From: Leptospiria bacterium
GTDB lineage: Bacteria; Spirochaetota; Leptospiria; Turneriellales; CBDBES01
Direction: 5' to 3'
Length of the DNA stretch: 64,000 bases
Assembly (NCBI GenBank): GCA_965262015.1
Contig: OZ253494.1
Coordinates: 1,018,720-1,082,719 of the forward strand
In this document: positions 13,849 through 56,152 of the stretch, one piece after another
How positions within the stretch are numbered: position 1 is the stretch's first letter
Layout: the number at the start of each line of letters is the position of its first letter
Notes under the pieces: model-generated
Told to the model about the DNA's origin: nothing
The model's database searches: none
What the model saw: the letters and a program-made list of their open reading frames with translations, nothing else
Position numbers and translations under genes: made by a program

Positions 13849-15060
13849 TTAATCTTCACTACCATGTGTACCAGCCTCTTTATCAGCTGCACGATGAGCA
13901 TTATTAGCGGCATCTTCACCTGTAGCTTCAGCTACTTTTCTGGCAGCTGTACTCACAGTATGGCTGGCTATTCCCGTTTGGCTTTCACTCAGAGCAAAGG
14001 CCTTATTATATGCTGCATCTCCAGCTGTTATACCTTTTTGGATGCGGTCCAGTCTATCACCAACACTATAGTCTATGGCCCAAGGGAATCTGACAGATAC
14101 ACTGCTGCGTCTAGGCAGAAATGTAGAAGCCAATGCAAATTTTCCGAATTTAACTTTGAGTTTCTTAGATCGAGCATCCTTATCAAAACTAAGGCCTTCT
14201 TTGATACTCATGATCTCAATAGATACTGTACTTGAGTTGTCAGAAGGAACAAAATAATCGCTGTTTGTGGTGCTGTCTGGACACCTATGTGGATCTAATC
14301 TGAATGTGATGGCTTCACTATTTGCTGGAATAGTAACCGTTATTGTGCTTTTTGTATTCCTAAGGGACTCTTCATTATCTCCCCCTATGAACTTAAAGGA
14401 ATAAAAATTAGCTGATAACGGGAAGCCGATACCAGGGTGGCCGATACCCCCTTGCACATTACAACTACCTCTATCATCTTCTATTATTGTCACACATTGG
14501 GTATTAACCCTAACCATAATAGGGCCTGTTCCAAGGCTCCCTGTTGTGAGAGTATCTGGACAGGGAGCCCCTGTCCCTGTAGTCGGTGCAGTACTGGGAA
14601 CAATCTTAGTATGGCGTGGCATAATCTTTGGGGCTCTATGATATGCTGTTGTCGTCCCACTACCTTCACTGTTTTCTATCGCCCACATTAAAGTAACTGT
14701 TACAGGCTTGTCTGTTGGAGTCATTCTTCTCACTGTATAAACAGGCAAACGATTGGTTTTGATTGTATTCTTTATTGTTGCTATTCCATCTTCCAAGCAA
14801 TCCGAGTATTCGCCTGAACAATCTAAACTTAGTGTGACATCCACCTCTGGCACCTCTGGCACCTCTGGCACCTCTGTACCAACCATATCGTCTGGATCGC
14901 TATCAATTACCGGAACGCTACCAGCCTTGCAATATGCAAAAAAACAAACAATTATTAGTAAGCCGTAAAGTAAATGGTAAAAGTATCTATGTGTGCTGTG
15001 CTGTGCTGTGCTGTGCTGTGCTGTGCTGTGCTGTGCTGTGCTGTGCTGTGTGGTTTTCAT
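13849..15060 (-). CDS. Surface/lipoprotein family A, paralog 1 (phase-variable leader, in frame = ON)
   Basis: MKTT(QHSTA)n-HRYFYHLLYGLLIIVCFFAYC signal-peptide-like N-terminus. It shares the blocks LDCS...IATI.NTIKT..LP.YT, FYSFKF, TF.LDPHRCPD and LKVKF with 26402-27608 and 27781-28992. Confidence 0.7.
   Translation of the reverse strand: MKTTQHSTAQHSTAQHSTAQHSTHRYFYHLLYGLLIIVCFFAYCKAGSVPVIDSDPDDMVGTEVPEVPEVPEVDVTLSLDCSGEYSDCLEDGIATIKNTIKTNRLPVYTVRRMTPTDKPVTVTLMWAIENSEGSGTTTAYHRAPKIMPRHTKIVPSTAPTTGTGAPCPDTLTTGSLGTGPIMVRVNTQCVTIIEDDRGSCNVQGGIGHPGIGFPLSANFYSFKFIGGDNEESLRNTKSTITVTIPANSEAITFRLDPHRCPDSTTNSDYFVPSDNSSTVSIEIMSIKEGLSFDKDARSKKLKVKFGKFALASTFLPRRSSVSVRFPWAIDYSVGDRLDRIQKGITAGDAAYNKAFALSESQTGIASHTVSTAARKVAEATGEDAANNAHRAADKEAGTHGSED
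14996..15050 (-). repeat. Pentanucleotide microsatellite (CACAG)11 on the coding strand
   Basis: 11 perfect CTGTG units on the plus strand, starting 10 nt after the ATG at 15060. They encode (HSTAQ)n. Confidence 0.95.
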
Positions 15061-26401: not shown

Positions 26402-27608
26402 TTACTCAGCACTACCATACTGGCCAGCAACTTTATCAACTATATCATAAATATCATTGTTAAATAATACATCGTTTTCTGTTTGTAGATCACTTAGTGT
26501 TTTCTTAGTTTTTTCCACAAGTGCATTCTTAATTGCTTGCTTAAAAACTGCGTCAGTTACACCCAATCCTCCATTAGAAAATTTAACTTTTAGGCTTTTG
26601 CTTGTCGTATCGTGAGCGAAGTCTGCAACTCGTTCGGCAACGGGGACAGCTGTTTGATCGAGACTCTTAATACCAACAGATATTGTTGATGAAGATTTAG
26701 TAGGAACTTCATAATCATCACTTGTACTGTTGTCTGGACATCTATGTGGATCTAAATGAAATGTAGTGCTTCGGCTACCTTCTGGAATCTCTACGCTTAT
26801 AAGATGTATTGCCCGCCCAGTTCCGGGAACTGTCCCATCCTCTGGATCTTCTATAGCTCTACCATCTGACTTTATGAACTTAAAGGAATAAAAAGTAGCT
26901 GACCATTTATGATCTACATTGTTAGTCTGCAATTTACAAGAATGCCTTGCTATCGTAGGATTATAGGACATATCATCATATTTGAAGTTAACAAGAGGAG
27001 GACTAACCTTTGGATGCAGATCGTATGCCTTATGTCTACTAAGACCCACGTTTCTCATAGTGCCAGTCGCATAAGTCTTGCTGCCCCTAACACTTCCTAT
27101 GCCACGACCAAAACCACTACCATCAGCGGCAGCCACGTCCCATCCTATCTTAACTGTTAAATCATATTCTGTAGAACCTTTTCTGCATAACGTATACATA
27201 GGTAAATTATCTGTTTTTATTGTATTGGTTATTGTTGCTATTTTGTTGCCTTCGGTCCCCTTCTTGCAATTCTTGTGACCTTTGCTTGAACAATCTAAAC
27301 GCAGGAAGACATCTTCTTCTGGTGGATCAACATCACATGTATGAACATCCTTAATTGGTGGGTCGTTACTATTCGGTGGGTCGTTGGGGTTGGGGCTATT
27401 CGTCGGATCGCTAGCATCCACTGGACTGCTATCTCCTCCTGGACTGCAATACGTAAAAAAACAAATAGTTATTAGCAGGCCATAAAGTAACTGGTAAAAG
27501 TATCTATGTGTTGTGCTGTTGTGCTGTTGTGCTGTTGTGCTGTTGTGCTGTTGTGCTGTTGTGCTGTTGTGCTGTTGTGCTGTTGTGCTGTTGTGCTGTT
27601 GTGCTCAT
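26402..27608 (-). pseudogene. Surface/lipoprotein family A, paralog 2: reversibly frameshifted (phase OFF)
   Basis: The ATG at 27608 reads MSTTAQQHN... and stops at TAG 27506-27504. The body frame (339 codons, 26402-27421) is open upward through the repeat but has no start and is closed by TGA 27607-27605. The ATG-to-CAT(HRYFY, 27508) distance is 100 nt. Confidence 0.8.
27511..27605 (-). repeat. Octanucleotide microsatellite (CAGCACAA) x 11 + 7 nt on the coding strand
   Basis: Perfect TTGTGCTG units counted on the plus strand from 27511. The tract abuts the ATG (27606-27608). Confidence 0.95.
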
Positions 27609-27780: not shown

Positions 27781-28992
27781 TTACTCAGCACTACCATACT
27801 CTCCAGCAACTTTATCAACTACATCATAAATTTCATTGTTAAATAATACATTCCTTATTTTTTCTAGCTGATTTAGTACACCAGACGCCATCTCCGTACC
27901 ACCCGTCTCCACCACATTACCATTCATATTCAAACTTACTTCACCACTACTCACCGTTACACTACCCACCTCTTTACCATCTGCAAATGTGGTCTCAAGT
28001 GCAGTCTCAATTGCAGTCTTAAACGTTATCCCCCCTATAGAAGTATCCAATTCCTCATTAGAAAATTTAACTTTTAGGCCTTTGCTTGTGTCATCGGAAG
28101 TAAGAGCTACACTCTGTTCGGCGGTATCGAGACTCTTAATACCAACAGATATTTTTGATGAAGATGCAGGAGGAGCGTCATAATCATCACTTGTACTGTC
28201 GTCTGGACATCTATGTGGATCTAAACGAAATGTAGTGCTTTGGCTACCTGCTGGAATCTCTACGGTTATACGATTTATTGCCTCCCCAGTTTGGGGAGGC
28301 AATAAATCTATAGCTCTACCATCTGAATCTAGGAACTTAAAGGAATAAAAAGTAGCTGAAAGATCATCAGACCGCACTATACAAGAATGCCTCTTTGGAG
28401 ATGTATTACCAGAGTTGTAACGAGCATTAAAGTATCGGAAGTTAACAAGAGGGGGACTAACCTTTGGATGCAGATCATACGCAGAAGTCGACCCACTACT
28501 TCCTAAGCCACGACCAAAACCACTACCCTCACTGCCAGTCACGTCCCATTTTAACTCAACTGTTAAATCATATTCTGTAGAACCTTTTCTGCATAACGTA
28601 TACATAGGTAAATTATCTGTTTTTATTGTATTGGTTATTGTTGCTATTTCGTTGCCTTCGGTCCCCTTGCAACCCCTATAACCGCTTGAACAATCTAAAC
28701 GCAGGAAGACATCTTTGTCTGGTGGATCAACATCACATATATGAACATCTTCGTCTGGTGGAGGAGGGCTACTACTTACCGGATCGTTACCAGCCTTGCA
28801 ATATGTAAAAAAACAAATAGTTATTAGCAGGCCATAAAGTAACTGATAAAAGTATCTATGTGTTGTGCTGTTGTGCTGTTGTGCTGTTGTGCTGTTGTGC
28901 TGTTGTGCTGTTGTGCTGTTGTGCTGTTGTGCTGTTGTGCTGTTGTGCTGTTGTGCTGTTGTGCTGTTGTGCTGTTGTGCTGTTGTGCTCAT
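27781..28992 (-). CDS. Surface/lipoprotein family A, paralog 3 (in frame = ON)
   Basis: M(STTAQQHN)5STT-HRYFYQLLYGLLITICFFTYC, then the family blocks LRLDCSS, IATITNTIKTDNLPMYTLCRKGSTEYDLTV, ATFYSFKF, TTFRLDPHRCPD and LKVKF. The C-terminus VLFNNEIYDVVDKVAGEYGSAE is shared with paralog 2. Confidence 0.75.
   Translation of the reverse strand: MSTTAQQHNSTTAQQHNSTTAQQHNSTTAQQHNSTTAQQHNSTTHRYFYQLLYGLLITICFFTYCKAGNDPVSSSPPPPDEDVHICDVDPPDKDVFLRLDCSSGYRGCKGTEGNEIATITNTIKTDNLPMYTLCRKGSTEYDLTVELKWDVTGSEGSGFGRGLGSSGSTSAYDLHPKVSPPLVNFRYFNARYNSGNTSPKRHSCIVRSDDLSATFYSFKFLDSDGRAIDLLPPQTGEAINRITVEIPAGSQSTTFRLDPHRCPDDSTSDDYDAPPASSSKISVGIKSLDTAEQSVALTSDDTSKGLKVKFSNEELDTSIGGITFKTAIETALETTFADGKEVGSVTVSSGEVSLNMNGNVVETGGTEMASGVLNQLEKIRNVLFNNEIYDVVDKVAGEYGSAE
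28863..28989 (-). repeat. Octanucleotide microsatellite (CAGCACAA) x 15 + 7 nt
   Basis: Perfect TTGTGCTG units on the plus strand from 28863, abutting the ATG (28990-28992). The ATG-to-CAT(28860) distance is 132 nt, which is in frame. Confidence 0.95.
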
Positions 28993-30113: not shown

Positions 30114-31187
30114 ATGCTATTGTCACAATTATTCACTCTTTTTTTCTCTCTTCCGTTCAATTTAATCACAATTGCATTTGTGTTCTGGTGTTTGCCTAGT
30201 GCCGTACCAAGGCGCTACATCTTAACTACAATACTCATTATATTGGCTTCTTCGATACTATTACCACAACAAGCATTACTTACTTTCTGGCTACCAGGCG
30301 GTAGTTCAATAATCTTATGTATTATAGGCATCACAATCTTTTTTCTAGATAACAAACAGTATCATAGCACTATGAAAAAAAGCTATAAACTCAACCGCAA
30401 TAAGACAAAACAAGAGTTAATGAAGATAGATGATATTTTTGAAAGACATAAAGCATATTTAGAACGTGTTAAGAAAATGAGTCAAGACCTACTCAAGAGA
30501 GATAAAGAGATCGGGAAGCAGGTTACGCTCTATTTTGTCGTCGCTATTTTAGCCACTTTCTTTCTAACAGCTATATACTGGATATGTGCCTACCACTACA
30601 ATTGGGAGGTACTGAACCTTTTTAAAGAAGACTTCATGAAAAAATTGGATACTCTTTTGACAACCCTACAACATGATAAAAAATCTATTAGCACCAACCT
30701 AATGGATTACAAATCATATTTTTTTGTAGCTATTTTAATCACAAATGTATTATGTATATTTCTAAGTATTGCTGTATTACGTCTAATGAATATCCGGAAA
30801 AAAGTTATATCCTTTTACCCTCCTGAAATTACCTTTTTTCACATGCCTGATCATACAATTATAGTTTTTCTTGTTTTATTAAGCTTATTTACTTATGCTT
30901 TAGGAAGACATCCCACAACTTCATCTTTCTTTGAATGGACAATGACACTTCTGTCTATTAATGCCTTGTTATATATAGTACAAGGTATTGCTACTATAAC
31001 TATCCACTTAAGAATTCGACTGTTGCCACCACGTGCTATTTTAGGCCTCTATTTTGTTCTAAGCTATTTTTCTATCCATATTTTTGTATTTATAAGTTTT
31101 TGCTTTCTTTTGATTGGTTTGTTAGATTTTGTTTTTGAATTTAGAAAAAAGGCTTTACAACCCAAGTTACTCACTTCCCACTCTTGA
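30114..31187 (+). CDS. Polytopic membrane protein, DUF2232/YybS-like
   Basis: About 8 TM segments. It occupies the same position (between ssb and rplI) as yybS in Firmicutes. The assignment rests on topology and context only. Confidence 0.45.
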   Translation: MLLSQLFTLFFSLPFNLITIAFVFWCLPSAVPRRYILTTILIILASSILLPQQALLTFWLPGGSSIILCIIGITIFFLDNKQYHSTMKKSYKLNRNKTKQELMKIDDIFERHKAYLERVKKMSQDLLKRDKEIGKQVTLYFVVAILATFFLTAIYWICAYHYNWEVLNLFKEDFMKKLDTLLTTLQHDKKSISTNLMDYKSYFFVAILITNVLCIFLSIAVLRLMNIRKKVISFYPPEITFFHMPDHTIIVFLVLLSLFTYALGRHPTTSSFFEWTMTLLSINALLYIVQGIATITIHLRIRLLPPRAILGLYFVLSYFSIHIFVFISFCFLLIGLLDFVFEFRKKALQPKLLTSHS

Positions 31188-31198
31188 CGAGTCTATTC

Positions 31199-31825
31199 AT
31201 GAAAGTTTTATTAACAAAAGATGTCCCTAATCTAGGGAAAAGTGGCAATATCAGAATAGTCAAGGATGGTTACGCCAGAAACTATTTATTGCCTAATTCA
31301 CTAGTAATTCCATTTAACGCAAACTCTAGTAAACACAAACAATTTTTAGAGGAAATGTCTTTGAAAAAAATCGCAAAAAGACGTCGTGAGGCCGAAGAAT
31401 ATCAGGGCAAGGTTGAAGGTGTAACGGTTACTTTTCAGGTTAAGGTAGGGGAAGGCGGTAAACTATTTGGTAGCATTACAAGTCTTCATATTCATAGAGA
31501 GCTTAAAAATCAAGGTATCGCAATTGACCGACGTGACATTAACCTTGATAGCCCTATTCGCAGTTTAGGTATATTTTCTGTATCTACTAAGTTATTTGAT
31601 GATATTGCAGCAAGTATCAAGGTAGTTGTGCAAGATGAGCACGGTAATACATCCTTTGTTCCTCCCAAACCAGAAACGGAGAATGATGATTCGCTTGATG
31701 AATACAGAACTGAAAACGTTCAAGAAAATACATCTTCGTCTCAACATGATGAGAAATCTTCAGACGAACATGATGAGCAATCTTCAGACGAACATGATGA
31801 ATCGTCCGAACATATAGACACTTGA
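31199..31825 (+). CDS. rplI: 50S ribosomal protein L9 with an acidic repeat tail
   Basis: MKVLLTKDVPNLGKSGNIRIVKDGYARNYLLP. The C-terminal ~60 aa are acidic, HDEKSSDEHDEQSSDEHDESSEH, encoded by 24-nt repeats at 31741-31815. Confidence 0.88.
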   Translation: MKVLLTKDVPNLGKSGNIRIVKDGYARNYLLPNSLVIPFNANSSKHKQFLEEMSLKKIAKRRREAEEYQGKVEGVTVTFQVKVGEGGKLFGSITSLHIHRELKNQGIAIDRRDINLDSPIRSLGIFSVSTKLFDDIAASIKVVVQDEHGNTSFVPPKPETENDDSLDEYRTENVQENTSSSQHDEKSSDEHDEQSSDEHDESSEHIDT

Positions 31826-38928: not shown

Positions 38929-39219
38929 TTAACTAGACTCTTTATCACTGGATTTTACTGCTGAAGATTCATTATCTTTACTTTGAGTTTTATCCTGAAT
39001 TTTTTTATTTTCGTTAGATTCTGTTGTATCTTTCTTATTCTTGTAGTCAGTAACGTAAAACCCACTTCCTTTGAAGTGGATACCAGCACCGCCTGATATC
39101 TTTCTTTTAATCTCTTTACTGCCACATTCCCCACAAGATAATTCTGGTGATTGTGACATACCATGAAAAACTTCAAAACCGAAATCACATTGGTTACAAT
39201 AATACTCGTAAGTAGGCAT
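38929..39219 (-). CDS. FmdB-family zinc-ribbon protein
   Basis: MPTYEYYCNQCDFGFEVFHGMSQSPELSCGECGS is the canonical FmdB CxxC...CxxC N-terminus. Confidence 0.85.
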   Translation of the reverse strand: MPTYEYYCNQCDFGFEVFHGMSQSPELSCGECGSKEIKRKISGGAGIHFKGSGFYVTDYKNKKDTTESNENKKIQDKTQSKDNESSAVKSSDKESS

Positions 39220-39295
39220 AGGTTATACTCACTTCAGATCATGAAAAAATGATGGAGCTGTCAATGCATTAATTGGTTACTATTGTAGAATCCAT

Positions 39296-39560
39296 GGACA
39301 TATGTTACAGTTATTGCCTAGGCCACTTTCATAGATTCGTAAAATCTCTTTGTGGTGTTAAAAAATCTTCTTAGTTGTTTGATTGTGTTCTTGATCTGTT
39401 TTTTAGCAATGCTAAAAGGAGTTTCCATTGGTTGCTCTCTTTATTTTTAGTATCTTAAAGAAAAACGGCTTATGAACGCCTTAAACTGTCTAAAAATGGA
39501 ACCTACGCTTTCAAATTTTCTAAGACTTCATAGAAAAAATGGTGGTAAGAGATTAATCGC
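39296..39560 (-). mobile_element. Internally deleted IS remnant (5' leader/start fused to the 3' end of an rve-type transposase gene)
   Basis: The minus strand encodes METPFSIAKKQIKNTIKQLRRFFNTTKRFYESMKVA*. The last ~70 bp (39300-39366) are essentially identical to 45010-45077, and the 5' part is homologous to 2850-2965. Confidence 0.45.
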
Positions 39561-39701
39561 CTCGTATAAAAAGTCTATAACTGTAATATAAAATTAGAAA
39601 AACTAATTTTATATGAAACATGGTGATAATCAAAAAACAGCTAAAAAAACTAAATACCCCACCCCAACGTGGGATGGGTAAAATAATATACGAGATTACA
39701 A

Positions 39702-41299
39702 TTATTGTGTTATGGTTATCTTTCGGATACGATGGTTGCCCGTATCTGCCACATATACATTGCCTAACTTATCAACCGCTACATCTTCAGGCCTTTTAAA
39801 TTGTACTGAAGTACCTGTGCCATCAGAACTACCACTACCGCCACCCGCCAATGTTGTAACCACACCATCAGGCGTTATTTTGCGGATACGATCGTTATCA
39901 CGATCTGCCACGTATACAAACCCTTTACTATCAACCGCTACTCCACTAGGCTTATTAAATTTTGCTGAAGTACCCACACCATCAGAATTACCACTACCGC
40001 CACCCGCCAATGTCGTAACCACACCACCAGGTGTTATTTTTTGGATACGATCGTTATCACGATCTGCCACGTATACAAACCCTTTACTATCAACTGCTAC
40101 ACTAACAGGAGTATTAAATTGTGCTGGACTCCCACCACCTGCAAATGTTGTAACCGTACCTGTGGACGTTATTTTGCGGATACGATCGTTCACAGTATCT
40201 GCCACGTATAATACATTGCCTGAACCATCAACCGCTACTCCATAAGGATTACTAAATCGCGCATCGGTACCCATGCCCTTCGTACAGCCGGAGGAGGGGG
40301 GAGTACATGGCATGCCTCCTACCCCACTTACGTTACCACCTGCCAAGGTTATAACCGTACCCGTACCCGTACCACTAGAAGGAGGTGTTATTTTTCGGAT
40401 AAGACTTCTAACCGAATCTGCCACATATACAAACCCATCACTATCAACCGCTACACCTTCAGGCTGATAGAATTGTGCTACACCAGGCATCCCAGGCATG
40501 TCATCCATACCGCCCACAGCACCAGTACCTGCGAATAAACTAACCGTACCTGTGGACGTTATTTTGCGGATACGATGATTCTGACGATCTGCTACATATA
40601 TTATATTGCCTAAACTATTAACCGCTACTCCAGCAGGCTCACTAAATTTTGCATCTGTACCCATGCCATCTTTGCAGGACTCTCCTATTGTTGCGAGGAT
40701 AATGCGAGTAGTAGTGCCACATTTAGTAGCAGTACCCATAGTACCCCCCTCGTTACCACCTGCTAACGTTGTAACCGTAACCTCGGCACAGGTTTTATCA
40801 CTTTTTAAGGCATAATAGTCATCGCAGGAAGTACATTTTTCTATACCCTTCCCAGGAGCTTTACCTGTTAATGGCACACCATTGGGGCAAATAAAATTGA
40901 ATGGTCTGCAAAGTTCACCATTTAGATCAAAACTAGGATCGCAAGAAACACATTTTTCTGTGTTAGCGGTTGAAACCTTTTCTGTTGATTCAACACCATT
41001 CGTACAAATAGGATCAAACTGTCCAGAACCACCACCAGAAGGGGTAGTAGCGTCGGCAGAGGCACCACCACCACATTGGACAGCAGCACTTACCACCAAT
41101 ACGGCAAATACGCTGATCGAGAAGTATCTTTTGGATACATGGAAAGAATGTTGACCTTGATCAACAATTCGTTCTAAAAATTTAGGAAAAGACTTATAGG
41201 TTGCTTGTTGCTTGTTGCTTGTTGCTTGTTGCTTGTTGCTTGTTGCTTGTTGCTTGTTGCTTGTTGCTTGTTGCTTGTTGCTTGTTGCTTGTTTATCAT
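39702..41299 (-). pseudogene. NHL-repeat lipoprotein, paralog 1: reversibly frameshifted (phase OFF)
   Basis: The body ORF 39702-41099 has Cys-rich modules plus NHL blades (GVAVDSKGFVYVADRDNDRIRKITP...). The SD-preceded ATG at 41299 reads MINK(QQATSNK)4QPISLFLNF and stops at 41176-41174. The body frame continues upstream as ...YKSFPKFLERIVDQGQHSFHVSKRYFSISVFAVLVVSAAVQCGGG (lipobox) with no start codon. ATG-to-body offset is 200 nt. Confidence 0.75.
41201..41291 (-). repeat. Heptanucleotide microsatellite (CAAGCAA)13 on the coding strand
   Basis: 13 perfect TTGCTTG units on the plus strand, beginning 8 nt after the ATG (41299). Confidence 0.95.
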
Positions 41300-41362
41300 T
41301 TTAGTACCTCTCTTTACTGCACCAATGTATGATGCATTGAGACACGAAGTTCTCGTTAGCAT

Positions 41363-41392
41363 AGGATATCTTCTTAATGAATAAAATGTCAA
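41363..41392 (-). promoter_or_regulatory. Candidate sigma70-type promoter of NHL paralog 1
   Basis: The minus strand reads TTGACA (41392-41387), an 18-nt spacer, then TATCCT (41368-41363). An AAGAGAGG RBS lies 7 nt before the ATG. Confidence 0.4.
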
Positions 41393-41476
41393 TTGTTTTT
41401 TATTTATTATCTTTCCAGGTTCTTTTTTTTCAGTAATTAAATATTCGTTTTGCTAACAATCTGTCAGAAAAATGTT

Positions 41477-41625
41477 ATGTATTTGGAAGGTCTATTTTCT
41501 CTAGCGGGCGGAGTTGCAGGTCTACTTCTTAGTAGGGTTACCCTTTTAGTATTCTGGTATTAGCTGGATTTATTGCCCTTTCTGGCGTTGCTGTTTTAGT
41601 TAGCATTGTTTTGGTTGGCTCGTGA
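41477..41625 (+). pseudogene. Degenerate fragment of an HME-RND (CzcA/CusA-like) transporter gene
   Basis: Across frameshifts it reads ...LAGGVAGLLLS..PF.YSGIS..AGFIALSGVAVLVSIVLVGS*, which resembles the TM11-12 block GTPFSISAGVGFIALFGVAVLNG. Confidence 0.4.
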
Positions 41626-41669
41626 GAAACGGCTTATCACAGCCACAACGCAACACAGAGGAATTGTGA

Positions 41670-42879: not shown

Positions 42880-42994
42880 GAAAGGCCATCAGAAGGGTTA
42901 GTAGCGTCGGCAGAGGGGAGAGGGGGCACCTCCACATTGGACGGTGCTTACCACCAATACGGCAAACACGCTGATCGAGAAGTATCTTTTGAAT
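42880..42994 (-). pseudogene. 5' fragment of a third NHL-family gene (signal-peptide region only)
   Basis: The reverse complement reads FKRYFSISVFAVLVVSTVQCGGAPS... It matches 44380-44465 apart from a 7-nt insertion. Promoter, ATG, heptamer tract and body are all missing. Confidence 0.6.
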
Positions 42995-43134
42995 AAAAGG
43001 TTTATAACCGCAATATAAAATTAGAAAAACTAATTTTATATGAAACATGGTGATAATCAAAAAACAGCTAAAAAAAGAAAACTAAATACCCCACCCCCAA
43101 CGTGGGATGGGTATAATAAGATACGAGATTACAA

Positions 43135-44588
43135 TTATTGTGGTATGGTTATTTTGCGGATACGATCGTTACCCGTATCTGCCACATATACATTGCCTAA
43201 CTTATCAACCGCTACATCTTCAGGCCTATTAAATTGTACTGAAGTACCTGTGCCATCAGAACTACCACTACCGCCACCCGCCAATGTTGTAACCACACCA
43301 TCAGGTGTTATTTTGCGGATACGATGATTATTAAGATCTGCCACATATACAAACCCTTTACTATCAACTGCCACTCCATAAGGCTTATTAAATTTTGCTG
43401 AAGTACCCACACCATCAGAACTACCACTACCGCCACCCGCCAATGTTGTAACCACACCATTAGGTGTTATTTTTTGGATACGATAATTATCACGATCTGC
43501 CACATATACATTGTTTGAACCATCAACTGCTACACTAACAGGCCTATTAAATTGTGCTGGACTCCCACCACCTGCAAATAAGCTAACCGTACCCATACCA
43601 CTAGAATCAAGCGTTATTTTATGGATATGATTGTTCCCAGTATCTGCCACGTATACAATCCCTGAACTATCAACCGCTACTCCAAAAGGTTCGCTAAGAC
43701 TAGTACCCGTCAAGGTATCAACCACACCTGCAGACGTTATCTTACGGATACTATTGTTGAATCTATCTGCCACATATACAAACCCATCACTATCAACCGC
43801 TACACCTTCAGGCTGCCGGAATTGTGCTACATTACCCGGACCATTCATAAAACCTCCTCCTTCTATCATCCCTCCCATACCATCCGCAGTCATACCAGTA
43901 CCTGCGAATGAGCTAACCACACGACCAGGCGTTATTTTGCGGATACGATTGTTCTGACGATCTACTACATATATATTGTCTAAACTATCAACCGCTATTC
44001 CAGCAGGATTATTAAATTCTGCTGAAGTACCTATGCCATCCATACAGCTGGAGGAGGGTGGAGTACATGGCATGCCTCCACCCTTGTTACCACCCGCCAA
44101 CGTTGTAACCGTAACCTCGGCACAGGTTTTATCACTTTTTAAGGCATAATAACTATTGCAAGAAGTACATTTTTCTATACCCTTCCCAGGAGCTTTACCT
44201 GTTGATTCAACACCATTCGTACAAATAAAATTGAATGGTCTGCAAAGTTCACCATTTTTCTCAAAACCAGTATTGCAAGAAACACATTTTTCTGTGTTAG
44301 CGGTTGAAACCTTTTCTGTTGAGGGAACACCATTCGTACAAATAGGATCAAACTGTCCAGACCCACCACCAGAAGGGATAGTAGCGTCGGCAGAGGGGGC
44401 ACCTCCACATTGGATGGTGCTTACCACCAATACGGCAAATACGCCGATCGAGAAGTATCTTTTGAATACATGGAAAGAATGTTGACCTTGATCAACAATT
44501 CGTTCTAAAAATTTAGGAAAAGACTTATAGGTTGCTTGTTGCTTGTTGCTTGTTGCTTGTTGCTTGTTGCTTGTTGCTTGTTTATCAT
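43135..44588 (-). pseudogene. NHL-repeat lipoprotein, paralog 2: reversibly frameshifted (phase OFF)
   Basis: Body ORF 43135-44430 (431 codons, NHL blades). The ATG at 44588 is followed by 7 heptamer units. ATG-to-body offset is 158 nt, the same wrong frame as paralog 1. Upstream in the body frame is ...HSFHVFKRYFSIGVFAVLVVSTIQCGGA. Confidence 0.75.
44532..44580 (-). repeat. Heptanucleotide microsatellite (CAAGCAA)7
   Basis: 7 perfect TTGCTTG units on the plus strand, 8 nt after the ATG (44588). Confidence 0.95.
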
Positions 44589-44650
44589 TTTAGTACCTCT
44601 CTTTACTGCACCAATTATGATGCATCGAGACATGAAGTTCTCGTTGGCAT

Positions 44651-44680
44651 AGAATATCTTCTTAATGAATAAAATGTCAA
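44651..44680 (-). promoter_or_regulatory. Candidate sigma70-type promoter of NHL paralog 2
   Basis: The minus strand reads TTGACA (44680-44675), an 18-nt spacer, then TATTCT (44656-44651). The geometry is the same as at 41363-41392. Confidence 0.4.
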
Positions 44681-44765
44681 TTGTTTTTTCATTTTTTATC
44701 TTTTCATGTTCTTTTTCTTTAGTAATTAAATATTTAATTTGCTAACAAATTGTCAGAAGAATATT

Positions 44766-44898
44766 ATGTATTTGGAAAGTCTATTTGCTTTAGCGGGCGA
44801 AGTTGCAGGTCTACTTCTTAGTAGGGTTACCTTTTAGTATTCTGGTATTAGCTGGATGTATTACTCTTTCTGGTGTTGCTGTTTTGGTTGGCTCGTGA
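44766..44898 (+). pseudogene. Second copy of the HME-RND gene fragment
   Basis: Co-duplicated with the NHL unit. It matches 41477-41625 but carries a short internal deletion. Confidence 0.35.
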
Positions 44899-45009
44899 GA
44901 AACGGCTTATCACAGCCACAACGCAACACAGAGGAATTGCGTGAATACATACTCTAAAGAGTACAAGTATCAAGTATTTGTAAGTGATTGGCTGTGGAAT
45001 CCCATAGAT

Positions 45010-45600
45010 ATATGTTACAGTTATTGCCTAGGCCACTTTCATAGATTCGTAAAATCTCTTATGTGGTGTTAAAAAATTAAAAGAAGAATGTGGGCTTTTT
45101 GTATTATACCACGTGAGATATTCATCCATCTTTTTTTGTATTTCTTATATGGATAAATTTGACTAAGAATCCATATCTGCTTCTTTTCCTAAATTTCAAC
45201 GAAATCTTTCTATCTTGCTGTTTAATTGAGGTGTACAAGGTTTAATCAAATGATGATGGATATATTATGTTCTTGTAATATCTGTTCAAAACCACATAGC
45301 CTATCTTTCTCTTTTCGAGTACTATTTAGAAAAGAAATATATCTGTAGGTAAATTCCACACTATTGTCAGTTTGTATAACTTTAGGTTTACCATAAGCTC
45401 CATAAAAAGCTATTGACAGATTTAGTATAAAATGGTTGGTGTAGCCATCTAACGCTCATCTTACTCACTTTAAGTAGCTGTATCCCTACCTTTATGGCGA
45501 CTCAGACCCCAAACGAATAAATATTCACTAATATCATTCATATCGTGTCTGCTCGCTAGCAGATAAAGTCTCCTATTGTATACTTACCTGAATCCCTTAT
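45010..45600 (-). mobile_element. Degenerate rve (DDE integrase-core) transposase pseudogene
   Basis: Minus-strand translations give AFYGAYGKPKVIQTDNSVEFT (the TDNG.EF core) and MDEYLTWYNTKSPHSSFNFLTPHKRFYESMKVA* (C-terminus). Several stops and frameshifts lie between them. Confidence 0.55.
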
Positions 45601-45654
45601 ACCTATACCTTGTTGTCAATACTAATCTGTGAACTACATGCAGATAGATTATAT

Positions 45655-48600
45655 ATGAAACATAATATGAGATTACTATTAATTATACTAGGAATATTTG
45701 GTATACATAGTTTATATTCAATACAAACACCTGAAAAAATCCAATTTCAGAAAATAGATGTTCAAGATCATACCATAGTCAATCAAATAACAGGTAGTGT
45801 ATTTACTCAAGATCACCATCCGCTATCTAATATTCATCTTTGTTTGATAAAATTAGATAAAATTTCACAAAAGCAACAGAATAATAGATTGCATTGCTAT
45901 AAAACAACTATTTCAGATAAACAGGGATATTTTAAAAGCACAATCATAGATCAAGGTACTTATCAAATTAAATATGAAGATAAACAACATAAGTATAAAA
46001 CATATATAAGCCCCTCTATTGTAGTTCGTGAGAATCATCTCATACAAGGTCAACAGTGGAATATGAAACCTGCATATTTAAAAATAACTGAACAATATTT
46101 TAAACTAAAAAAGGAAGTACGTATTTACATAAAAAATAAATTAAATAATCAACTTGTTAAACAGAAAATGTGGATACAGTTACAACTTGACCTTGATAAT
46201 ACACCTGTAAAATGTACATTATATGAGGAAGAGTTTTATAGTTGTCCTTTATACAAAGAAATAGAAATTACTAAACATGAATCTACAGAACTTAAACTAT
46301 GGCTAAAAGTAACATACCAAGATAATACTTTTGACATACAAAATCAAATTATTATTAAAAATCCAGTCAATCAACCAGTTAAAGATAGGTTGGTAATATC
46401 AAAACAATCTAATAACTATAAGTTAGTCGAAGAGAATAAACAGTATTTATACACACTTTTATGTGATACTCAGTTAGCCCAAGATAGTGTAACATTAGAA
46501 TTTCAAACTTATTTTCCTCGTATAGATCAAGAGAGTGATTTTTTTGATTCTCATAAGATTATAGCTAATTTCATGGGAGATATTACAAAATCAATTGCCT
46601 TATCTTTTACTATAAATAAGCAAAATTTTAGACAGGTAATTTCTCTAAAAAATTTTGATCACAAGTTGGCAACTATAGAACATAATTATTCACATCGTAA
46701 CTTTAACATCCAAATGTATATCTATAAGAAAAAGAAAAATGGTAGTTGGGAACTAAATAATAACTACCAGAATCCCCTTAAACAAAGTTATGCAATAGAA
46801 GCCTCGTCCATTAATTACATCACTATTAATCTAAAGAATGTAACTACAACAAAGAAGCAAACAAATATACAAGTATCTGGAAATATTTGCCTAGACATAC
46901 CCGATGAAAAAAATTGCAGTAAAGAAGATATCCCTAATAGAGCTGAGATAATACTTAAACTTCCAAATAAAAATTTATTCTTTTTTACAAATTCTAGTAA
47001 ACAGAATGTATTTAGTGAAATCATCATAGAATCTTTAAAAGCATCTCAAATCAAAGAAATTAGTATATCATATAGACCCTCTACGTACCAGACCGTAAAT
47101 CTAATTAAATGCTCCCCTGAATCCACAATGCCTGATTGTTTTGTATGGGATGACGAAAACAAACACTTACAATTACCTTACATTAATTTAATCCATAAAA
47201 AGAATTATATCCAAGAATTATATTTAGAACTTACTAGTATTAATAGTCAAAGTAAACGTCTGCCTTTCTCATTACCTATTAAATTAGAAATAGAAGGGAA
47301 TTCTTTTTTTGTAGAAACAAGTCAAAATTCTAGTACAACTGTAAGGGTGGAACTTAATCAAGGATGCTATATCGGCGAAAAAATAAATATTACCATCACA
47401 CCAACCATCCCTCTAGCACTTAAACAAATTTTATCTACTATACGTCCAAAATCAGACATACCATACCAAACAAGTATTACTTGCACACCCACTAATCATT
47501 ATCACCTAAATGTCATGTACAAGCATGGTATTTATATTAAAGGTTCTGTATTTAATACATCTCACCAGGGAGCTCAGGACTTATCTCTTATGATAAAATA
47601 TCATGGAAATATCTTGCATGAAATACGTACTAATGCAGAAGGTCAGTTTTTATTCCACCTAACAGATACATTTTTAAAACTACCGAGTAAGGAAGTATTA
47701 CATATCTATACTAAGGATGTCTCTAAACCTCTTAAGGAGATCTCGCTCTATAATTATAAAATAGGTGATACAATAAATACAGAAATTATTATTCAAGATA
47801 GTGATACTGGAATAGAACTATGGTCTCTTGTAGGACACGTATACGATGAAAACAACCTGTCTGGTATTGAGAAAGTTAAGGTACAATTACATAAAACCCA
47901 TCTTGATCAAAAAATAGATATTGGGCAAGCCTATACCCAAAATAATTGTCAAGATAAGTCATCCTGTATCTTTCAAATATCTCATCTCTCTATTCCTAAA
48001 CGATATGACATTACTAGTGTACTAAAATCATACTCGATTAGTATGGAACATCCTTATTATCAGGCCAGAGACTCTATCAGTGTAGCAGATATGATAACAA
48101 ATATTAGTATCCTAAAAGAGAAGAAACAAATCATTATTCATGCACAAAAAGATAATTTATTTTTAAGACCAATAAAAACGATATCTCTGCTAATAAAATC
48201 TAGTATGAGTTTTACATCCCAAAACATTACACCCTCTAGCGTATTTATAAAATATATCCAAAACAATATACTGGTTCAGATCCAAGATTCTACAAAAAAT
48301 ATTTTATATAAGGGTAAATTAGAGTCACCTATTGTACTTACATGGGAACAGGGTATTATGCAAGCATTACAAAATGAAAAAACAAATAATATAAAATTTC
48401 AATATTTTTTAAAGGAGCCCCATGAGATTCATATGGTGATGGAAGAAGTGCAAAGCTTAAAAGAATTATGCTCCGTTAATATAACAGAAATTCATTTAAA
48501 ACCTCATTTAGTATTCAAAGCACAAATTCATAAACAGCAATTTGATATTGTAGCTTTACAAATGAATTTTTCTCAAGCCTTGTTACAAAGAACTAAATTA

Positions 48601-50073
48601 CCAGCTTCTTTCCATCTTAATGATATGGTATTAAATAAAAAAAATTGGGAGATCGCATTTTTAGACATGACATGGCAACCAAGTACAATGCGCTACCTTC
48701 CCCATAAAAACAAGATTGAAATTGGATATTTGACTTGGTCATCTATTCAGCCTACGATACAAATTCGTCAGACAAAATCTTTTTTGAAACAGATGTTTCA
48801 TTTTTACTTTGTTGGCTGTAAAAATAAGAGATGCTTAATAATAAATGAAAAATTAGCTTCATATACTTTTTTATTTCAAGCATCCTATAAAAATTGGCTG
48901 GGCTGGAATGACATAATCGAATATGAAGATCTCAAAGAACAAATAAGTTTTACTTTATCCATAGATAATATTACCATTACACAGCCAATTGAGGTAACTA
49001 CTAAACTAAAATATGATAGTGATTCAGAAGGTCCTTTTAAAATACAAATAGCACCTAGTTTAAAAATCAAGAATCTTTCCACAGATATCATTAACCATTG
49101 GTATAAAAATGGCATCCCTAATACTAAAGATATGAAATTGAATTTACTGGATTATAATACCCTAACAACACATAAAGAGCCTGATAAAGAAATTTGGATA
49201 TTTAGAATGCAAATTGTACACAATAAACTGCCTGCAAATTTAACCCAGTATCCTTTGCATAAAAATATTCCTAAGGATGTATTAAAACAAATGTCTTTTG
49301 TGGAACAAAATAAAAATGCGTATGTACGAGGCTGCTATGCTTCTTTTTTTTACCCTCGTTACAAAAACTATGTAAGATGGGATAAATTATCATGGGTTGA
49401 TGCTAAAGGTAAAAAAGTAAAAACAAATAAGGGTAAGGGTTCGCATGTATATATTGGTTGTCAGAATACAAATCGATTTAGTCGTGCCTGTCCTAGTAGA
49501 AAATATCACTGGCAAGAAGTAGAGCAACATGACATCCAAGGTTATAAGGAGTATACTCGACGTAAGCGAAATAATAACGAGAGAGGTAACCCTTATGGAT
49601 GCAATACATTTTGTACGTTAGCTGTCAGTGCCATGGCATATGATTATCTGGGTTTTGATCTACAAGCCCCACCAAAATCCATAAAAATTGGTAACCAAAC
49701 TTTTACAGATTTAAATGGAAATAATATATCATATGTTCTAGAAAATGACTTATTAAATTTAAACTCTACTACATATACTTTGAAACAATGGTATTTAGCA
49801 GAACAAAAAGCTAAGGAGGGTCAATTAGTTTTTATTACACTAGATAACTGCACCTCGAAATTAAATAGGCAATGTAGAACAGGTCATATTGCAGTCCTCA
49901 CTGGAGGAAGAAAAACTAATCAGAAAACAAAGAAGAATGCGGTAAATAATTTGTACATATACCAGGCAGGAGCTTCTTTTGGATTTATGACTTTAGAACA
50001 AGGTTTTGGATATTATATTTATGGTAGACCATCAAAAATTAAATTTGTGGTAGTACCACGCCCTACTTCATGA
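45655..50073 (+). CDS. Giant secreted protein: multiple CarboxypepD_reg/Ig-like modules plus a C-terminal papain-like (NlpC/P60-CHAP-Tae4-like) Cys-His domain
   Basis: Signal peptide MKHNMRLLLIILGIFGIHSLYS. Modules include ITGSVFTQDHHPLSNIHL...DKQGYFKSTIIDQGTYQIKY and IKGSVFNTSHQGAQDLSL...NAEGQFLFHL. In the C-terminus NPYGCNTFCTLAVSAMAYDYLG (Cys codon 49612-49614) is followed 91 aa later by TGHIAVLTGG (His codon 49885-49887). Confidence 0.7.
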   Translation: MKHNMRLLLIILGIFGIHSLYSIQTPEKIQFQKIDVQDHTIVNQITGSVFTQDHHPLSNIHLCLIKLDKISQKQQNNRLHCYKTTISDKQGYFKSTIIDQGTYQIKYEDKQHKYKTYISPSIVVRENHLIQGQQWNMKPAYLKITEQYFKLKKEVRIYIKNKLNNQLVKQKMWIQLQLDLDNTPVKCTLYEEEFYSCPLYKEIEITKHESTELKLWLKVTYQDNTFDIQNQIIIKNPVNQPVKDRLVISKQSNNYKLVEENKQYLYTLLCDTQLAQDSVTLEFQTYFPRIDQESDFFDSHKIIANFMGDITKSIALSFTINKQNFRQVISLKNFDHKLATIEHNYSHRNFNIQMYIYKKKKNGSWELNNNYQNPLKQSYAIEASSINYITINLKNVTTTKKQTNIQVSGNICLDIPDEKNCSKEDIPNRAEIILKLPNKNLFFFTNSSKQNVFSEIIIESLKASQIKEISISYRPSTYQTVNLIKCSPESTMPDCFVWDDENKHLQLPYINLIHKKNYIQELYLELTSINSQSKRLPFSLPIKLEIEGNSFFVETSQNSSTTVRVELNQGCYIGEKINITITPTIPLALKQILSTIRPKSDIPYQTSITCTPTNHYHLNVMYKHGIYIKGSVFNTSHQGAQDLSLMIKYHGNILHEIRTNAEGQFLFHLTDTFLKLPSKEVLHIYTKDVSKPLKEISLYNYKIGDTINTEIIIQDSDTGIELWSLVGHVYDENNLSGIEKVKVQLHKTHLDQKIDIGQAYTQNNCQDKSSCIFQISHLSIPKRYDITSVLKSYSISMEHPYYQARDSISVADMITNISILKEKKQIIIHAQKDNLFLRPIKTISLLIKSSMSFTSQNITPSSVFIKYIQNNILVQIQDSTKNILYKGKLESPIVLTWEQGIMQALQNEKTNNIKFQYFLKEPHEIHMVMEEVQSLKELCSVNITEIHLKPHLVFKAQIHKQQFDIVALQMNFSQALLQRTKLPASFHLNDMVLNKKNWEIAFLDMTWQPSTMRYLPHKNKIEIGYLTWSSIQPTIQIRQTKSFLKQMFHFYFVGCKNKRCLIINEKLASYTFLFQASYKNWLGWNDIIEYEDLKEQISFTLSIDNITITQPIEVTTKLKYDSDSEGPFKIQIAPSLKIKNLSTDIINHWYKNGIPNTKDMKLNLLDYNTLTTHKEPDKEIWIFRMQIVHNKLPANLTQYPLHKNIPKDVLKQMSFVEQNKNAYVRGCYASFFYPRYKNYVRWDKLSWVDAKGKKVKTNKGKGSHVYIGCQNTNRFSRACPSRKYHWQEVEQHDIQGYKEYTRRKRNNNERGNPYGCNTFCTLAVSAMAYDYLGFDLQAPPKSIKIGNQTFTDLNGNNISYVLENDLLNLNSTTYTLKQWYLAEQKAKEGQLVFITLDNCTSKLNRQCRTGHIAVLTGGRKTNQKTKKNAVNNLYIYQAGASFGFMTLEQGFGYYIYGRPSKIKFVVVPRPTS

Positions 50074-53908: not shown

Positions 53909-56152
53909 TTACTCCGACAACCTAAATTGTACTAATTGGTATGTTTTACTCATAATTGGATTGTTAAGCTTATCATAACTTGGTTTGTAACGTTTCCTTT
54001 TGTAAGCTTTTACAGCTGCTCGATCGAGACCAAAACCTAACTTTCTACCAATGATTTTAGCATTCAGCACCTTACCAGTCTTAGATATCACTAACTCCAA
54101 CATAATATTTCCTTGAATAGCATTTCGCCGAGCAGCTATTGGATAATCGATCACAACATTAGACTTGTCTAATGGTACAGGCATGCTGGCACCAATAGAT
54201 AAAGGATTTATAGCCTGGGCTAGAAATTTTTTCCGCTCTAGTGCTTTCTTTTTAGCTTGCTTGGCTTTCTTTTTAGCTTGCTCGGCTTTCTTTTTAGCTT
54301 GCTCGGCTTTCTTTTTAGCTTGCTCGGCTTTCTTTTTAGCTTGCTCGGCTTTCTTTTTAGCTCGCTCGGTGGTCTTTTTAGCTCGCTCGGTGGTCTTCTG
54401 CCCAGCTTTCTCTTTAGCTTGCTTGGCTTCCTCTTCAGCTTGCTTGGCTTTCTCTTTAGCTTGCTTGGCTTTCTCTTTAGCTCGCTTGGCTTCTTCTTTA
54501 GCTCGCTTAGTTTCTTTTTCAGCTTGCCTGGCTTCTTCTTTAGCTCGCTTAGTTTCTTCTTCAGCTTCCTTGGCTTCTTCTTCAGCTTCTTTAATTCTAT
54601 CTAATCTTTTAGAACGAAGCTTTTCAATGGGTATAGGAGTACCTGGTATTGTTAATTGCGTTTGTATCTTAGCTTGTTCTTGAATAATCTCTTCAGGCTG
54701 TTTATCAAATGGTACAAGTATTTTCTCAGGAACTTTGTCTAACTTTACTTGTTCTGGTATAATTTTTTCTTCTTCTGGTATTTCTTTCTGTACTTCTTCC
54801 TGTACTTCTTTTTTGCTCTTAGACGTAGAGACTATATTAAAAGCATAAATAATCTTCTTATCCTTCTTAGATAGCTGGGCAGTATAGGCTGCCTGCTCTG
54901 AGGCATACTCCACTTCTATCTGCCAATAATAACGCCCAACATCTAGATCATTAACAATAAAGCTTCTACCGGACACTAGTTTATTAATAATTATATTGCG
55001 CATCTCTTTGTCTTTGGCAACAAGAAGTCGTACAGGCACTGAACGTTCTAAATCCCAACGAAATCGAATAGCTTCACCCAACTTTGATATAGAATTATAA
55101 GCAGGAGACTGTAATAAGAGCCCTACCGAGCCTTCAATACGGAAATCATGGGGCACAGAAGCGGTTAATTGCCCATCACGCTGTCCAGTGACCTGCCAAT
55201 ACCATGTACCAGCTGACAAGGCAACCTTCTTTTGGAATCCATTGGTCTTATATATAGCTTTTTTATCAAAAGTTTTTGTAGAAGAAATATACAACTCATA
55301 CGAATCTAGATCCACTAATGCATTCCATCTAAAAAGAATATCATACTTAGATTTACGACTGTCTAAAACAAACAGACCGGCTGGCTCAGGATGAATACTT
55401 AAAATATCAATTTGATGAAGTGCTTTTTTTACTCTTCCACTCTCTTTATCCTCGACAATAGATAAAACCTCACCTGCTATGATAATGTCTTCACTTAGAT
55501 CTTCCTCTACCTGCCCTGGTTTATCCTTTTGTCTCTTTGCACTCTTCTTTTTTTGCCCATCTTTTGGTGCACCAAGCTCATTCTGAGAGACTGCAGCAAC
55601 TTTCTCTGTGGGCGGGGGCTTTGCCTTATTTAAACGTACTGAACCACTCTCCACATATACATTAGTTTGTTGATTAATTCTTTGTAAAGTAACTTCGGCA
55701 TCACCAATATTAATGATAGAATCACCCAAACGTATTTTAGTAGTATCTGTTTCTGAAGCCCCAGTGGCTCGTAAAATACCACTGTTAAAGACTAAACCAA
55801 GATCTTGACCATGAACCTGTATTTGCAACAAAGAGTTAGATTCTATTTCAATAATACTACCTGTTCTAAGAACAATCATTGCACTCGAATTCTCTTGTGT
55901 AAGGATATAGTCGTTATAATATACATCTGAATCTATGGCAATTACTTCCCAAATAAAACGGCCTGATAGCTTCCGTAATACAACGTTAGATGTATGCACT
56001 ACTTTACCTAGAACTTGTGCACCTGATTCATGAGAAAGCGAACGGGTAAAATGTAAATAGACAAGAACAGACCAAATAATAGAATTTAGTAACAAAAATA
56101 ATATAACTTTTGTACCGCCCTGACTTTTATTAAATGAAGGATTTTGTAACAT
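53909..56152 (-). CDS. Membrane-anchored FecR-like / K-E-A-repeat / TonB C-terminal domain fusion protein
   Basis: TM segment VILFLLLNSIIWSVLVYLHF. FecR-like block ILTQENSSAMIVLRTGSIIEIESNSLLQI. About 110 aa are almost pure K/E/A/Q. The TonB_C-like end is YPIAARRNAIQGNIMLELVISKTGKVLNAKII...AVKAYKRKRYKP. Confidence 0.7.
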   Translation of the reverse strand: MLQNPSFNKSQGGTKVILFLLLNSIIWSVLVYLHFTRSLSHESGAQVLGKVVHTSNVVLRKLSGRFIWEVIAIDSDVYYNDYILTQENSSAMIVLRTGSIIEIESNSLLQIQVHGQDLGLVFNSGILRATGASETDTTKIRLGDSIINIGDAEVTLQRINQQTNVYVESGSVRLNKAKPPPTEKVAAVSQNELGAPKDGQKKKSAKRQKDKPGQVEEDLSEDIIIAGEVLSIVEDKESGRVKKALHQIDILSIHPEPAGLFVLDSRKSKYDILFRWNALVDLDSYELYISSTKTFDKKAIYKTNGFQKKVALSAGTWYWQVTGQRDGQLTASVPHDFRIEGSVGLLLQSPAYNSISKLGEAIRFRWDLERSVPVRLLVAKDKEMRNIIINKLVSGRSFIVNDLDVGRYYWQIEVEYASEQAAYTAQLSKKDKKIIYAFNIVSTSKSKKEVQEEVQKEIPEEEKIIPEQVKLDKVPEKILVPFDKQPEEIIQEQAKIQTQLTIPGTPIPIEKLRSKRLDRIKEAEEEAKEAEEETKRAKEEARQAEKETKRAKEEAKRAKEKAKQAKEKAKQAEEEAKQAKEKAGQKTTERAKKTTERAKKKAEQAKKKAEQAKKKAEQAKKKAEQAKKKAKQAKKKALERKKFLAQAINPLSIGASMPVPLDKSNVVIDYPIAARRNAIQGNIMLELVISKTGKVLNAKIIGRKLGFGLDRAAVKAYKRKRYKPSYDKLNNPIMSKTYQLVQFRLSE
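54242..54600 (-). repeat. In-frame 21-nt tandem repeats encoding (AEQAKKK)n and related K/E/A heptads
   Basis: Seven consecutive 21-nt units at 54242-54388 (GGCTTTCTTTTTAGCTTGCTC and variants), followed by degenerate copies to ~54600. Confidence 0.9.

Follow-up and report, generated by a model that had tools for sequence, protein, structure and literature searches.

A heptanucleotide repeat between start codon and signal peptide as the probable phase-variation switch of NHL-repeat genes in an uncultured Leptospirales-like spirochaete

Contingency loci mark organisms that are exposed to adaptive immunity, phages, or other fluctuating selection; the best-known examples come from Neisseria, Haemophilus, Campylobacter, Helicobacter, and mycoplasmas. 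Haemophilus influenzae, for example, carries tetranucleotide loci (CAAT in lic1, CCAA in hgp, AGTC or AGCC in mod), and the unit of neisserial pglE, CAAACAA, is one base off the CAAGCAA unit described here. In the opa genes of Neisseria, CTCTT repeats lie in the coding region of the leader peptide (PMC3960869; bioRxiv 10.1101/2020.09.16.300947), a heptanucleotide repeat turns pglE on and off (PMC7157529), and in Gardnerella nanH3 a poly-C tract near the signal-peptide region has led automated annotation to a truncated product without signal peptide (bioRxiv 10.1101/2020.09.16.300947). Here we analysed a (CAAGCAA)13 simple sequence repeat (SSR) in a stretch of 64,000 nucleotides (nt; hereafter the window) from the genome of a Leptospiria bacterium (assembly GCA_965262015.1, contig OZ253494.1, positions 1,018,720 to 1,082,719), where it separates the start codon from the signal peptide in the first of two tandem genes with NHL repeats (NHL paralog 1). 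We consider it about 80% probable that this tract acts as a switch in translational phase variation of the Opa type known from Neisseria, and that this contingency locus was sequenced in its OFF state. The proposed mechanism is that of textbook SSR-driven translational phase variation; noteworthy are the lineage and the density of switches, and the T-free units of 5, 7, and 8 nt set the loci apart from the systems compared here.

As in opa, the tract lies between start codon and mature protein within the signal-peptide coding region, its unit is not divisible by three and unit number sets the frame of the body relative to the ATG, and several paralogous loci per genome, which would be switched independently, encode a presumed surface protein. 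The Opa repeat, however, encodes the hydrophobic core, whereas here a polar QQATSNK stretch lies upstream of the core; the unit has 5 nt in opa and 7 nt here; Opa is a beta-barrel and the present product a putative NHL-propeller lipoprotein; and switching has been measured for Opa but is predicted from sequence here. The likeness to pglE is an A/C-rich heptanucleotide coding repeat as on/off switch, but PglE is a cytoplasmic glycosyltransferase, its tract is unlinked to a signal peptide, and no homology is implied. The annotation truncation of nanH3 recurs in the public annotation of NHL paralog 1 (P0001) and of a third NHL paralog (P0244); the nanH3 tract differs in being a homopolymer that lies after the signal peptide, and its OFF state still makes the signal peptide. 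With the loci of H. influenzae the present ones have in common that they are numerous in a small genome, that A/C-rich units mark the 5' ends of genes encoding surface structures, and that on/off states combine across loci. Units there have 4 nt, and H. influenzae is a well-studied, host-restricted gammaproteobacterium in contrast to the uncultured Leptospirales-like spirochaete of this study.

On the minus strand, the elements of NHL paralog 1 follow each other as AAGAGAGG, 7 nt, ATG, ATAAA, (CAAGCAA)13, and CCTATAAGTCTTTTCCTAAATTTTTAG (Table 1). The tract, which the original prediction had placed behind an ATG with a good ribosome-binding site, was reproduced with a regular expression, by reading the sequence, and with Tandem Repeats Finder (41200-41293, period 7, 13.4 copies, 100% matches). 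A probe of three CAAGCAA units with at most one mismatch found 16 matches in the window, all of them in the tracts of the two NHL paralogs, and none across 100 dinucleotide-preserving shuffles. As is characteristic of SSR contingency loci, the tract is long and perfect, its 7-nt unit is not a multiple of three, and it lies within a reading frame, 3' of an ATG preceded by a Shine-Dalgarno sequence. Cyclic permutations of QQATSNK are encoded in all three frames. All three unit types of the window (5, 7, and 8 nt) are T-free on the coding strand, so that no stop codon and no ATG, GTG, or TTG can occur inside a tract in any frame. The promoter-like TTGACA-18-TATCCT that had been proposed upstream is present by consensus scan, and its -35 hexamer and spacing are kept in NHL paralog 2, but in this AT-rich region such matches show no enrichment over shuffles (26 vs 20.1 +/- 5.5).

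From the ATG at 41299 the frame reads MINK(QQATSNK)4QPISLFLNF, 41 codons in all, and then stops. The frame of the NHL body (open reading frame [ORF] of 465 codons, 39702..41099) is open from a TAA just 5' of the ATG and through the repeat, and its first ATG, GTG, or TTG is the TTG at 41099, within the hydrophobic stretch SISVFAVLVVSAAVQC. The offset between ATG and TTG (41299-41099) is 200 nt, which leaves a remainder of 2 on division by three; the sequenced 13-unit state of paralog 1 is OFF. When the tract was resized in silico, 5, 8, 11, 14, or 17 units resulted in a continuous protein of 513-541 amino acids (aa) and any other number in a peptide of 18-55 aa, so that the product alternates between full length and truncation as units are added or removed. 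Termination in a wrong frame occurs 2-9 codons past the tract in the NHL genes and 2-10 codons past it in a second family of 403-aa proteins (see below), and in the phase n = 0 mod 3 (n being the number of units) a TAA stop directly follows the tract. Both reading frames, the 200-nt offset, and the restoration of the frame by gain of one or loss of two units had been claimed before and hold exactly by arithmetic and resizing, and resizing likewise supports the view that a listed 72-aa ORF is the detached leader and not a gene. Other starts were considered and rejected: re-initiation past the leader stop (over 75 nt the body frame offers no start codon), use of the ATT 41168-41166 (a rare initiator without Shine-Dalgarno sequence), and the upstream TTG 41392 or ATG 41362, the frame of which differs between the NHL paralogs.

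The tandem copy, NHL paralog 2, provides a natural comparison. The duplicate (42993-44939, corresponding to 39566-41666) carries promoter-like hexamers, a Shine-Dalgarno sequence, ATGATAAA, and a post-tract leader as in paralog 1, with 7 units vs 13. Its ATG-to-body offset of 158 nt again has a remainder of 2, so that both paralogs are OFF in one and the same phase; paralog 2 would be restored by 5, 8, or 11 units, 8 units giving 486 aa in silico. Identity between the paralogs is 93% in the 370 nt upstream, 100% from the ATG to the tract, and 96% in the post-tract leader, compared to 91% in the Cys-rich region and 86% in the variable blades of the body, where 174 gap columns occur; within the duplication, conservation is highest in the switch cassette. 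A 1-nt insertion or deletion between the paralogs 5' of the ATG implies that this region is non-coding and that the ATG at 41299 is the start. Tracts of 7 and 13 units between near-identical flanks mean that the number of units changed while the flanks stayed fixed, and tract length also differs between paralogs of the 403-aa family (12 vs 16 units), as would be expected of contingency loci. Both NHL bodies (465 and 431 codons) are stop-free at a synonymous divergence (dS) of ~0.2, and tract phase is the sole lesion in either gene; in a simulation with ~97 random substitutions, the fraction keeping a stop-free ORF was 6.9% (0.069) per lineage. Intact ORFs with tract phase as the only lesion therefore favour a reversible OFF state over decay. 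The nonsynonymous divergence (dN) of 0.145 against a dS of 0.20 corresponds to a dN/dS of 0.72, which could reflect weak constraint on the body or diversifying selection as is common in variable surface proteins. The remnant of a third copy (42886-42995), without ATG, repeat, or body, shows that recombination and deletion act on the array as well.

The same layout is found in the 403-aa family, which is unrelated to the NHL genes and has no Pfam match. Its genes open with the order ATG, repeat, and HRYFY-LLYGLLI-CFF-YC, with signal peptides ending in FF(A/T)YC, and their flanks align while unit (5 vs 8 nt) and unit count vary. As the leaders with 5-mers and 8-mers are homologous, the repeat unit must have changed within one family. 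Two of these genes are in frame, so the order of ATG, repeat, and signal peptide does yield a continuous precursor in this genome, and the out-of-frame (GCACAACA)12 gene would encode 396 or 404 aa with 10 or 13 units, respectively. Altogether, three of the five tracts in the window are out of frame, where random tract lengths would lead one to expect two-thirds. In the (GCACA)11 gene, in-frame PEV repeats, (CACCTCTGG)3.9, are located just after the lipobox (14842-14876). A further observation is that (K/H)RYF directly precedes the hydrophobic core in all five switched genes although the families are otherwise unrelated; the motif may be specific to the signal peptides of this lineage or go back to a common ancestral leader.

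The NHL body is predicted to form a six-blade NHL-repeat beta-propeller: six stretches match NHL repeats (Pfam PF01436, E = 2e-50, 166.7 bits vs a cut-off of 20), and sequence matches in PDB include teneurin-like proteins, the designed Pizza6, TRIM71, and the PknD sensor domain (best E = 1.8e-55). The Cys-rich modules between signal peptide and propeller have ~45 aa each. A search with the whole precursor was dominated by generic NHL proteins, and the N-terminal 149 aa had no homologue among 5.8 billion proteins except P0244 from the same genome. This third NHL paralog (130 aa, outside the window) contains one Cys-rich module and one blade and may be another out-of-frame tract locus; its annotated start lies inside its signal peptide (MISVFAVLLVSVQC / MISVFAVLLVSVQCGG). 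A plausible n-region and lipobox had been proposed for paralog 1. As in lipoproteins, where the core has 7-22 residues, the charged KRYF is followed by the hydrophobic core SISVFAVLVVSAAV and a Cys (read from the sequence), but the lipobox is non-canonical: the -1 residue is Q in NHL paralog 1 (AVQC), NHL paralog 2 (TIQC), and P0244 (SVQC), whereas members of the 403-aa family have Y there; a small residue (G, A, or S) is expected in bacterial lipoproteins, and S, N, G, or A are usual in leptospiral ones (PMC2063517). Export via the signal peptide appears a safer claim than lipidation, which we infer.

We thus propose the following model, which builds on the anatomy as observed, on the logic of the frames, on the unequal tract lengths of the paralogs, and on the in-frame examples of the layout. 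Transcription would start 5' of the ATG at 41299, and ribosomes would begin at this ATG and always cross the T-free tract, the number of units fixing the frame at the tract exit. With n = 2 mod 3 (11, 14, 17), translation would continue into YKSFPKFLERIVDQGQHSFHVSKRYF, the hydrophobic core, the Cys, and the Cys-rich/NHL-propeller body, and the ON product would be exported to the surface, probably anchored there by a lipid, and carry a long polar region at its N-terminus. At all other values of n, ribosomes would terminate soon after the tract (within the 2-9 codons given above) and no exportable protein would be made. Slipped-strand mispairing at replication might add or remove 7-nt units and lead to stochastic, reversible ON/OFF states. 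Predicted from the DNA are slippage as such, switching with its rate and reversibility, and a product that is exported, lipidated, and exposed on the surface.

Table 1. Features of the NHL array, the 403-aa family, and CAAGCAA tracts of other genomes. Positions refer to the window, except in the last row.
Feature	Position	Strand	Remarks
(CAAGCAA)13 simple sequence repeat of NHL paralog 1	41201..41291	minus	Perfect, T-free; exact regular-expression count of 13 units
ATG start codon of precursor	41297..41299	minus	Followed by ATAAA, then repeat; tract begins 8 nt after ATG
Shine-Dalgarno-like AAGAGAGG	41307..41314	minus	7 nt 5' of ATG; identical in paralog 2; read from sequence
Putative sigma-70-type promoter, TTGACA-18-TATCCT	41363..41392	minus	Consensus scan, 10/12 matches
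TAG stop of ATG frame (13-unit state)	41174..41176	minus	Ends 41-aa leader; preceded by A_AAT_TTT at 41183-41177
Post-repeat leader, body frame	41073..41200	minus	YKSFPKFLERIVDQGQHSFHVS, KRYF, hydrophobic core SISVFAVLVVSAAVQ, Cys (TGT 41075-41073)
Mature NHL paralog 1 (predicted)	39702..41072	minus	Gly/Ser linker, two Cys-rich modules, six-blade NHL beta-propeller; stop 39702-39704
Intrinsic-terminator-like hairpin and T run, 3' of paralog 1	39658..39678	minus	Duplicated behind paralog 2 at 43090-43111
(CAAGCAA)7 of NHL paralog 2	44532..44580	minus	ATG 44588-44586; leader stop 44507-44505; body 43135-44430
Remnant of third copy	42886-42995		110 nt, 89% identical to paralog 2 signal-peptide region (KRYFSISVFAVLVVS..QCGG..); just downstream of paralog 2
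403-aa putative lipoprotein gene	13849..15060	minus	(GCACA)11 (14992-15046) directly after ATGAAAACCACACA; in frame, ON
403-aa family paralog	26402..27608	minus	(GCACAACA)12 (27509-27604) after ATG 27608; out of frame, OFF
403-aa family paralog	27781..28992	minus	(GCACAACA)16 (28861-28988) after ATG 28992; in frame, ON
(K/H)RYF sites	41132-41121; approx. 44463-44452, 14990-14979, 27507-27496, 28859-28848		
CAAGCAA tracts elsewhere, among the matches listed	L086 ~3161; L027 ~992; L091 ~2350; L051 ~358; L065 ~3	minus; plus; plus; minus; minus	

Several points weigh against the proposed switch. The exact post-tract junction was not found in metagenome contigs, and neither a second allele nor a close relative appeared in the collections searched (the best non-self match of PurA in the protein database has 60% identity), nor did the N-terminal domain match anything but proteins of this genome. 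Moreover, the N-terminal region of the ON state would be very long (~60 residues ahead of the core), the lipobox has a non-canonical Q at -1, the dN/dS of 0.72 points to weak constraint on the NHL body or else to diversifying selection, and both NHL copies are OFF, which is also how decay or an assembly miscount would look. Such a miscount, with the true tract in frame (e.g. 14 units) and a 91-nt tract miscounted or a mixed population collapsed into one consensus, is unlikely. The single contig of 1.92 Mb is typical of long-read assembly, where repeat-length errors occur, and three out-of-frame tracts among five would fit such errors, but all five tracts are perfect with clean flanks, the two independent NHL tracts (13 and 7 units) share one phase, and miscounts by whole 7-nt units are generally much rarer than homopolymer errors. 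Besides, a wrong count would leave the switch architecture as it is, and a population of mixed tract lengths would in its own right speak for phase variation. Decay is less probable still. It would require that both NHL paralogs had been silenced for good when an incidental repeat shifted their frame, which the out-of-frame state of both copies, the dN/dS of 0.72, and the truncated third fragment (42886-42995; the array does lose copies) might suggest; pseudogenes would, however, hardly show tract phase as their sole defect in bodies that stayed stop-free despite a dS of ~0.2, nor a cassette of promoter, Shine-Dalgarno sequence, ATG, and leader as the best-conserved part of the duplication, and two other genes have the same layout in frame.

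Two further explanations concern translation itself. Programmed -1 ribosomal frameshifting could rescue the phase of 13 and 7 units, making the sequenced state 'low' instead of 'off', as the leader in this phase ends with CTA AAT TTT TAG and an X_XXY_YYZ heptamer, A_AAU_UUU, abuts the stop; a -1 slip on it reads AAA UUU UUA GAA, exactly the frame of the NHL body. This slippery heptamer stands in the zero frame as in dnaX-type sites, is identical in both paralogs, and ends just one of 52 long ORFs in the window. Stimulators are nevertheless missing: the 97 nt downstream fold with -16.8 kcal/mol (z = -0.67), no better than shuffles, and no Shine-Dalgarno-like element lies upstream (no GGAG or AGGA within 20 nt). 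XXXYYYN heptamers occupy 0.9% of positions in this DNA with its guanine plus cytosine (GC) content of 35%, amounting to a chance of ~7% for one in frame within eight post-tract codons, and no counterpart is seen in the OFF frames of the 403-aa family. As a main route, -1 frameshifting was rejected (no downstream structure above shuffles, heptamers common by chance), and we regard any rescue by it as even more improbable than decay. The same small chance is given to a three-level switch with full expression at n = 2 mod 3, none at 0 mod 3, and low expression via a -1 slip at 1 mod 3, which, if true, would couple slippage at the DNA level to slippage at the ribosome level in one leader. Least credible is constitutive expression from the internal TTG 41099 or GTG 41096, with the ATG-repeat ORF being unrelated or a regulatory upstream ORF. 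The public annotation does start there (P0001, 464 aa, MVSAAVQC), yet such a start would strip an obvious signal peptide, ahead of a Cys-rich NHL propeller, of its charged N-terminal region and cut its hydrophobic core by half, neither codon is preceded by a Shine-Dalgarno sequence, and the body frame is open for ~200 nt upstream through the repeat, a region 96-100% conserved between the paralogs. P0244 is likewise called inside its signal peptide (MISVFAVLLVSVQC), pointing to a systematic problem, and the public internal start call is almost certainly an annotation artefact.

Reading frames set by a repeat tract, our preferred explanation here, may exist well beyond this genome. A scan of a genome collection for three CAAGCAA units gave matches in at least 118 unrelated genomes, with tracts of 4-36 units among the matches listed. 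In a Chitinophagales metagenome-assembled genome (MAG; L086), ATGAA and 10 units are followed by a lipoprotein-type signal peptide, NFKLISFNFSCILLISLFFFSC, out of frame; 6 units precede ...LALSLTSCGGGGGG in a Spirochaetaceae MAG (L091), and 4 units precede a signal peptide in a Bacteroidales MAG (L027); in all three the tract comes straight after a start codon. In Leuconostoc koreense (L051), 36 units are located in frame before a DNA methyltransferase-like protein, and a CAAGCAA tract likewise precedes a DNA methyltransferase-like gene in Brachyspira. The repeat is convergent, given that the downstream genes are unrelated. The arrangement of start codon, heptamer, and signal peptide is thus recurrent in nature and largely unannotated, and the genes with CAAGCAA tracts in these genomes are candidates for phase variation; to our knowledge, none of these tracts has been characterised.

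The host seems to be a deep-branching, uncultured, Leptospirales-like spirochaete. The best non-self matches of its PurA (56-60% identity) are from Turneriella, Leptospiraceae, and Spirochaetia MAGs, the proteins of the window come from one contig of 1,922,353 bp and are singletons at 90% identity, and one histidine kinase in the window best matches the Leptospira family model LIC_12097. The genome is small (1.92 Mb), and the window has a GC content of 35%. A full-text literature search yielded no report of SSR phase variation in Leptospira, a search on reduced-genome Leptospirales symbionts found nothing, and we know of no earlier description of such switches in this lineage. It is somewhat more probable than not that these are the first SSR-switched genes in the class of Leptospira, with at least five putative lipoprotein genes in 64 kb of a 1.9-Mb genome, a reading that is more likely but less novel than the three-level switch. 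Five switches in 64 kb, each positioned after the start codon and ahead of the signal peptide in the gene of a putative surface protein, suggest stochastic surface variation in this lineage, which may be host-associated or under heavy phage pressure. Automated annotation miscalls switched genes as N-terminally truncated cytoplasmic proteins (P0001, P0244), and tract lengths at the read level could serve as markers of population heterogeneity. The gain is thus one of taxonomic breadth and annotation, not of principle.

A direct repeat of ~85 nt with 94% identity (39284-39366 and 44993-45077) flanks the whole NHL array of 5.7 kb, one copy being located 5' of a small zinc-ribbon gene (38929-39219); it could delimit an island that was inserted or duplicated, or be a regulatory element present in duplicate. 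The array is adjoined by an ORF of 1487 aa on the plus strand (45610-50073, TTG start) with only a weak match to CarboxypepD_reg. Other repeats of the window are in frame: a 24-nt repeat with 2.4 copies (31743-31800) near the 3' end of the ORF 31184-31825, and a long, imperfect array of 21-nt units (7 codons; 54243-54588) within a 747-aa protein (53909-56152, minus strand). The latter protein has a TonB C-terminal/TolA-like match, and changes in its array could alter the length of the protein but never its frame.

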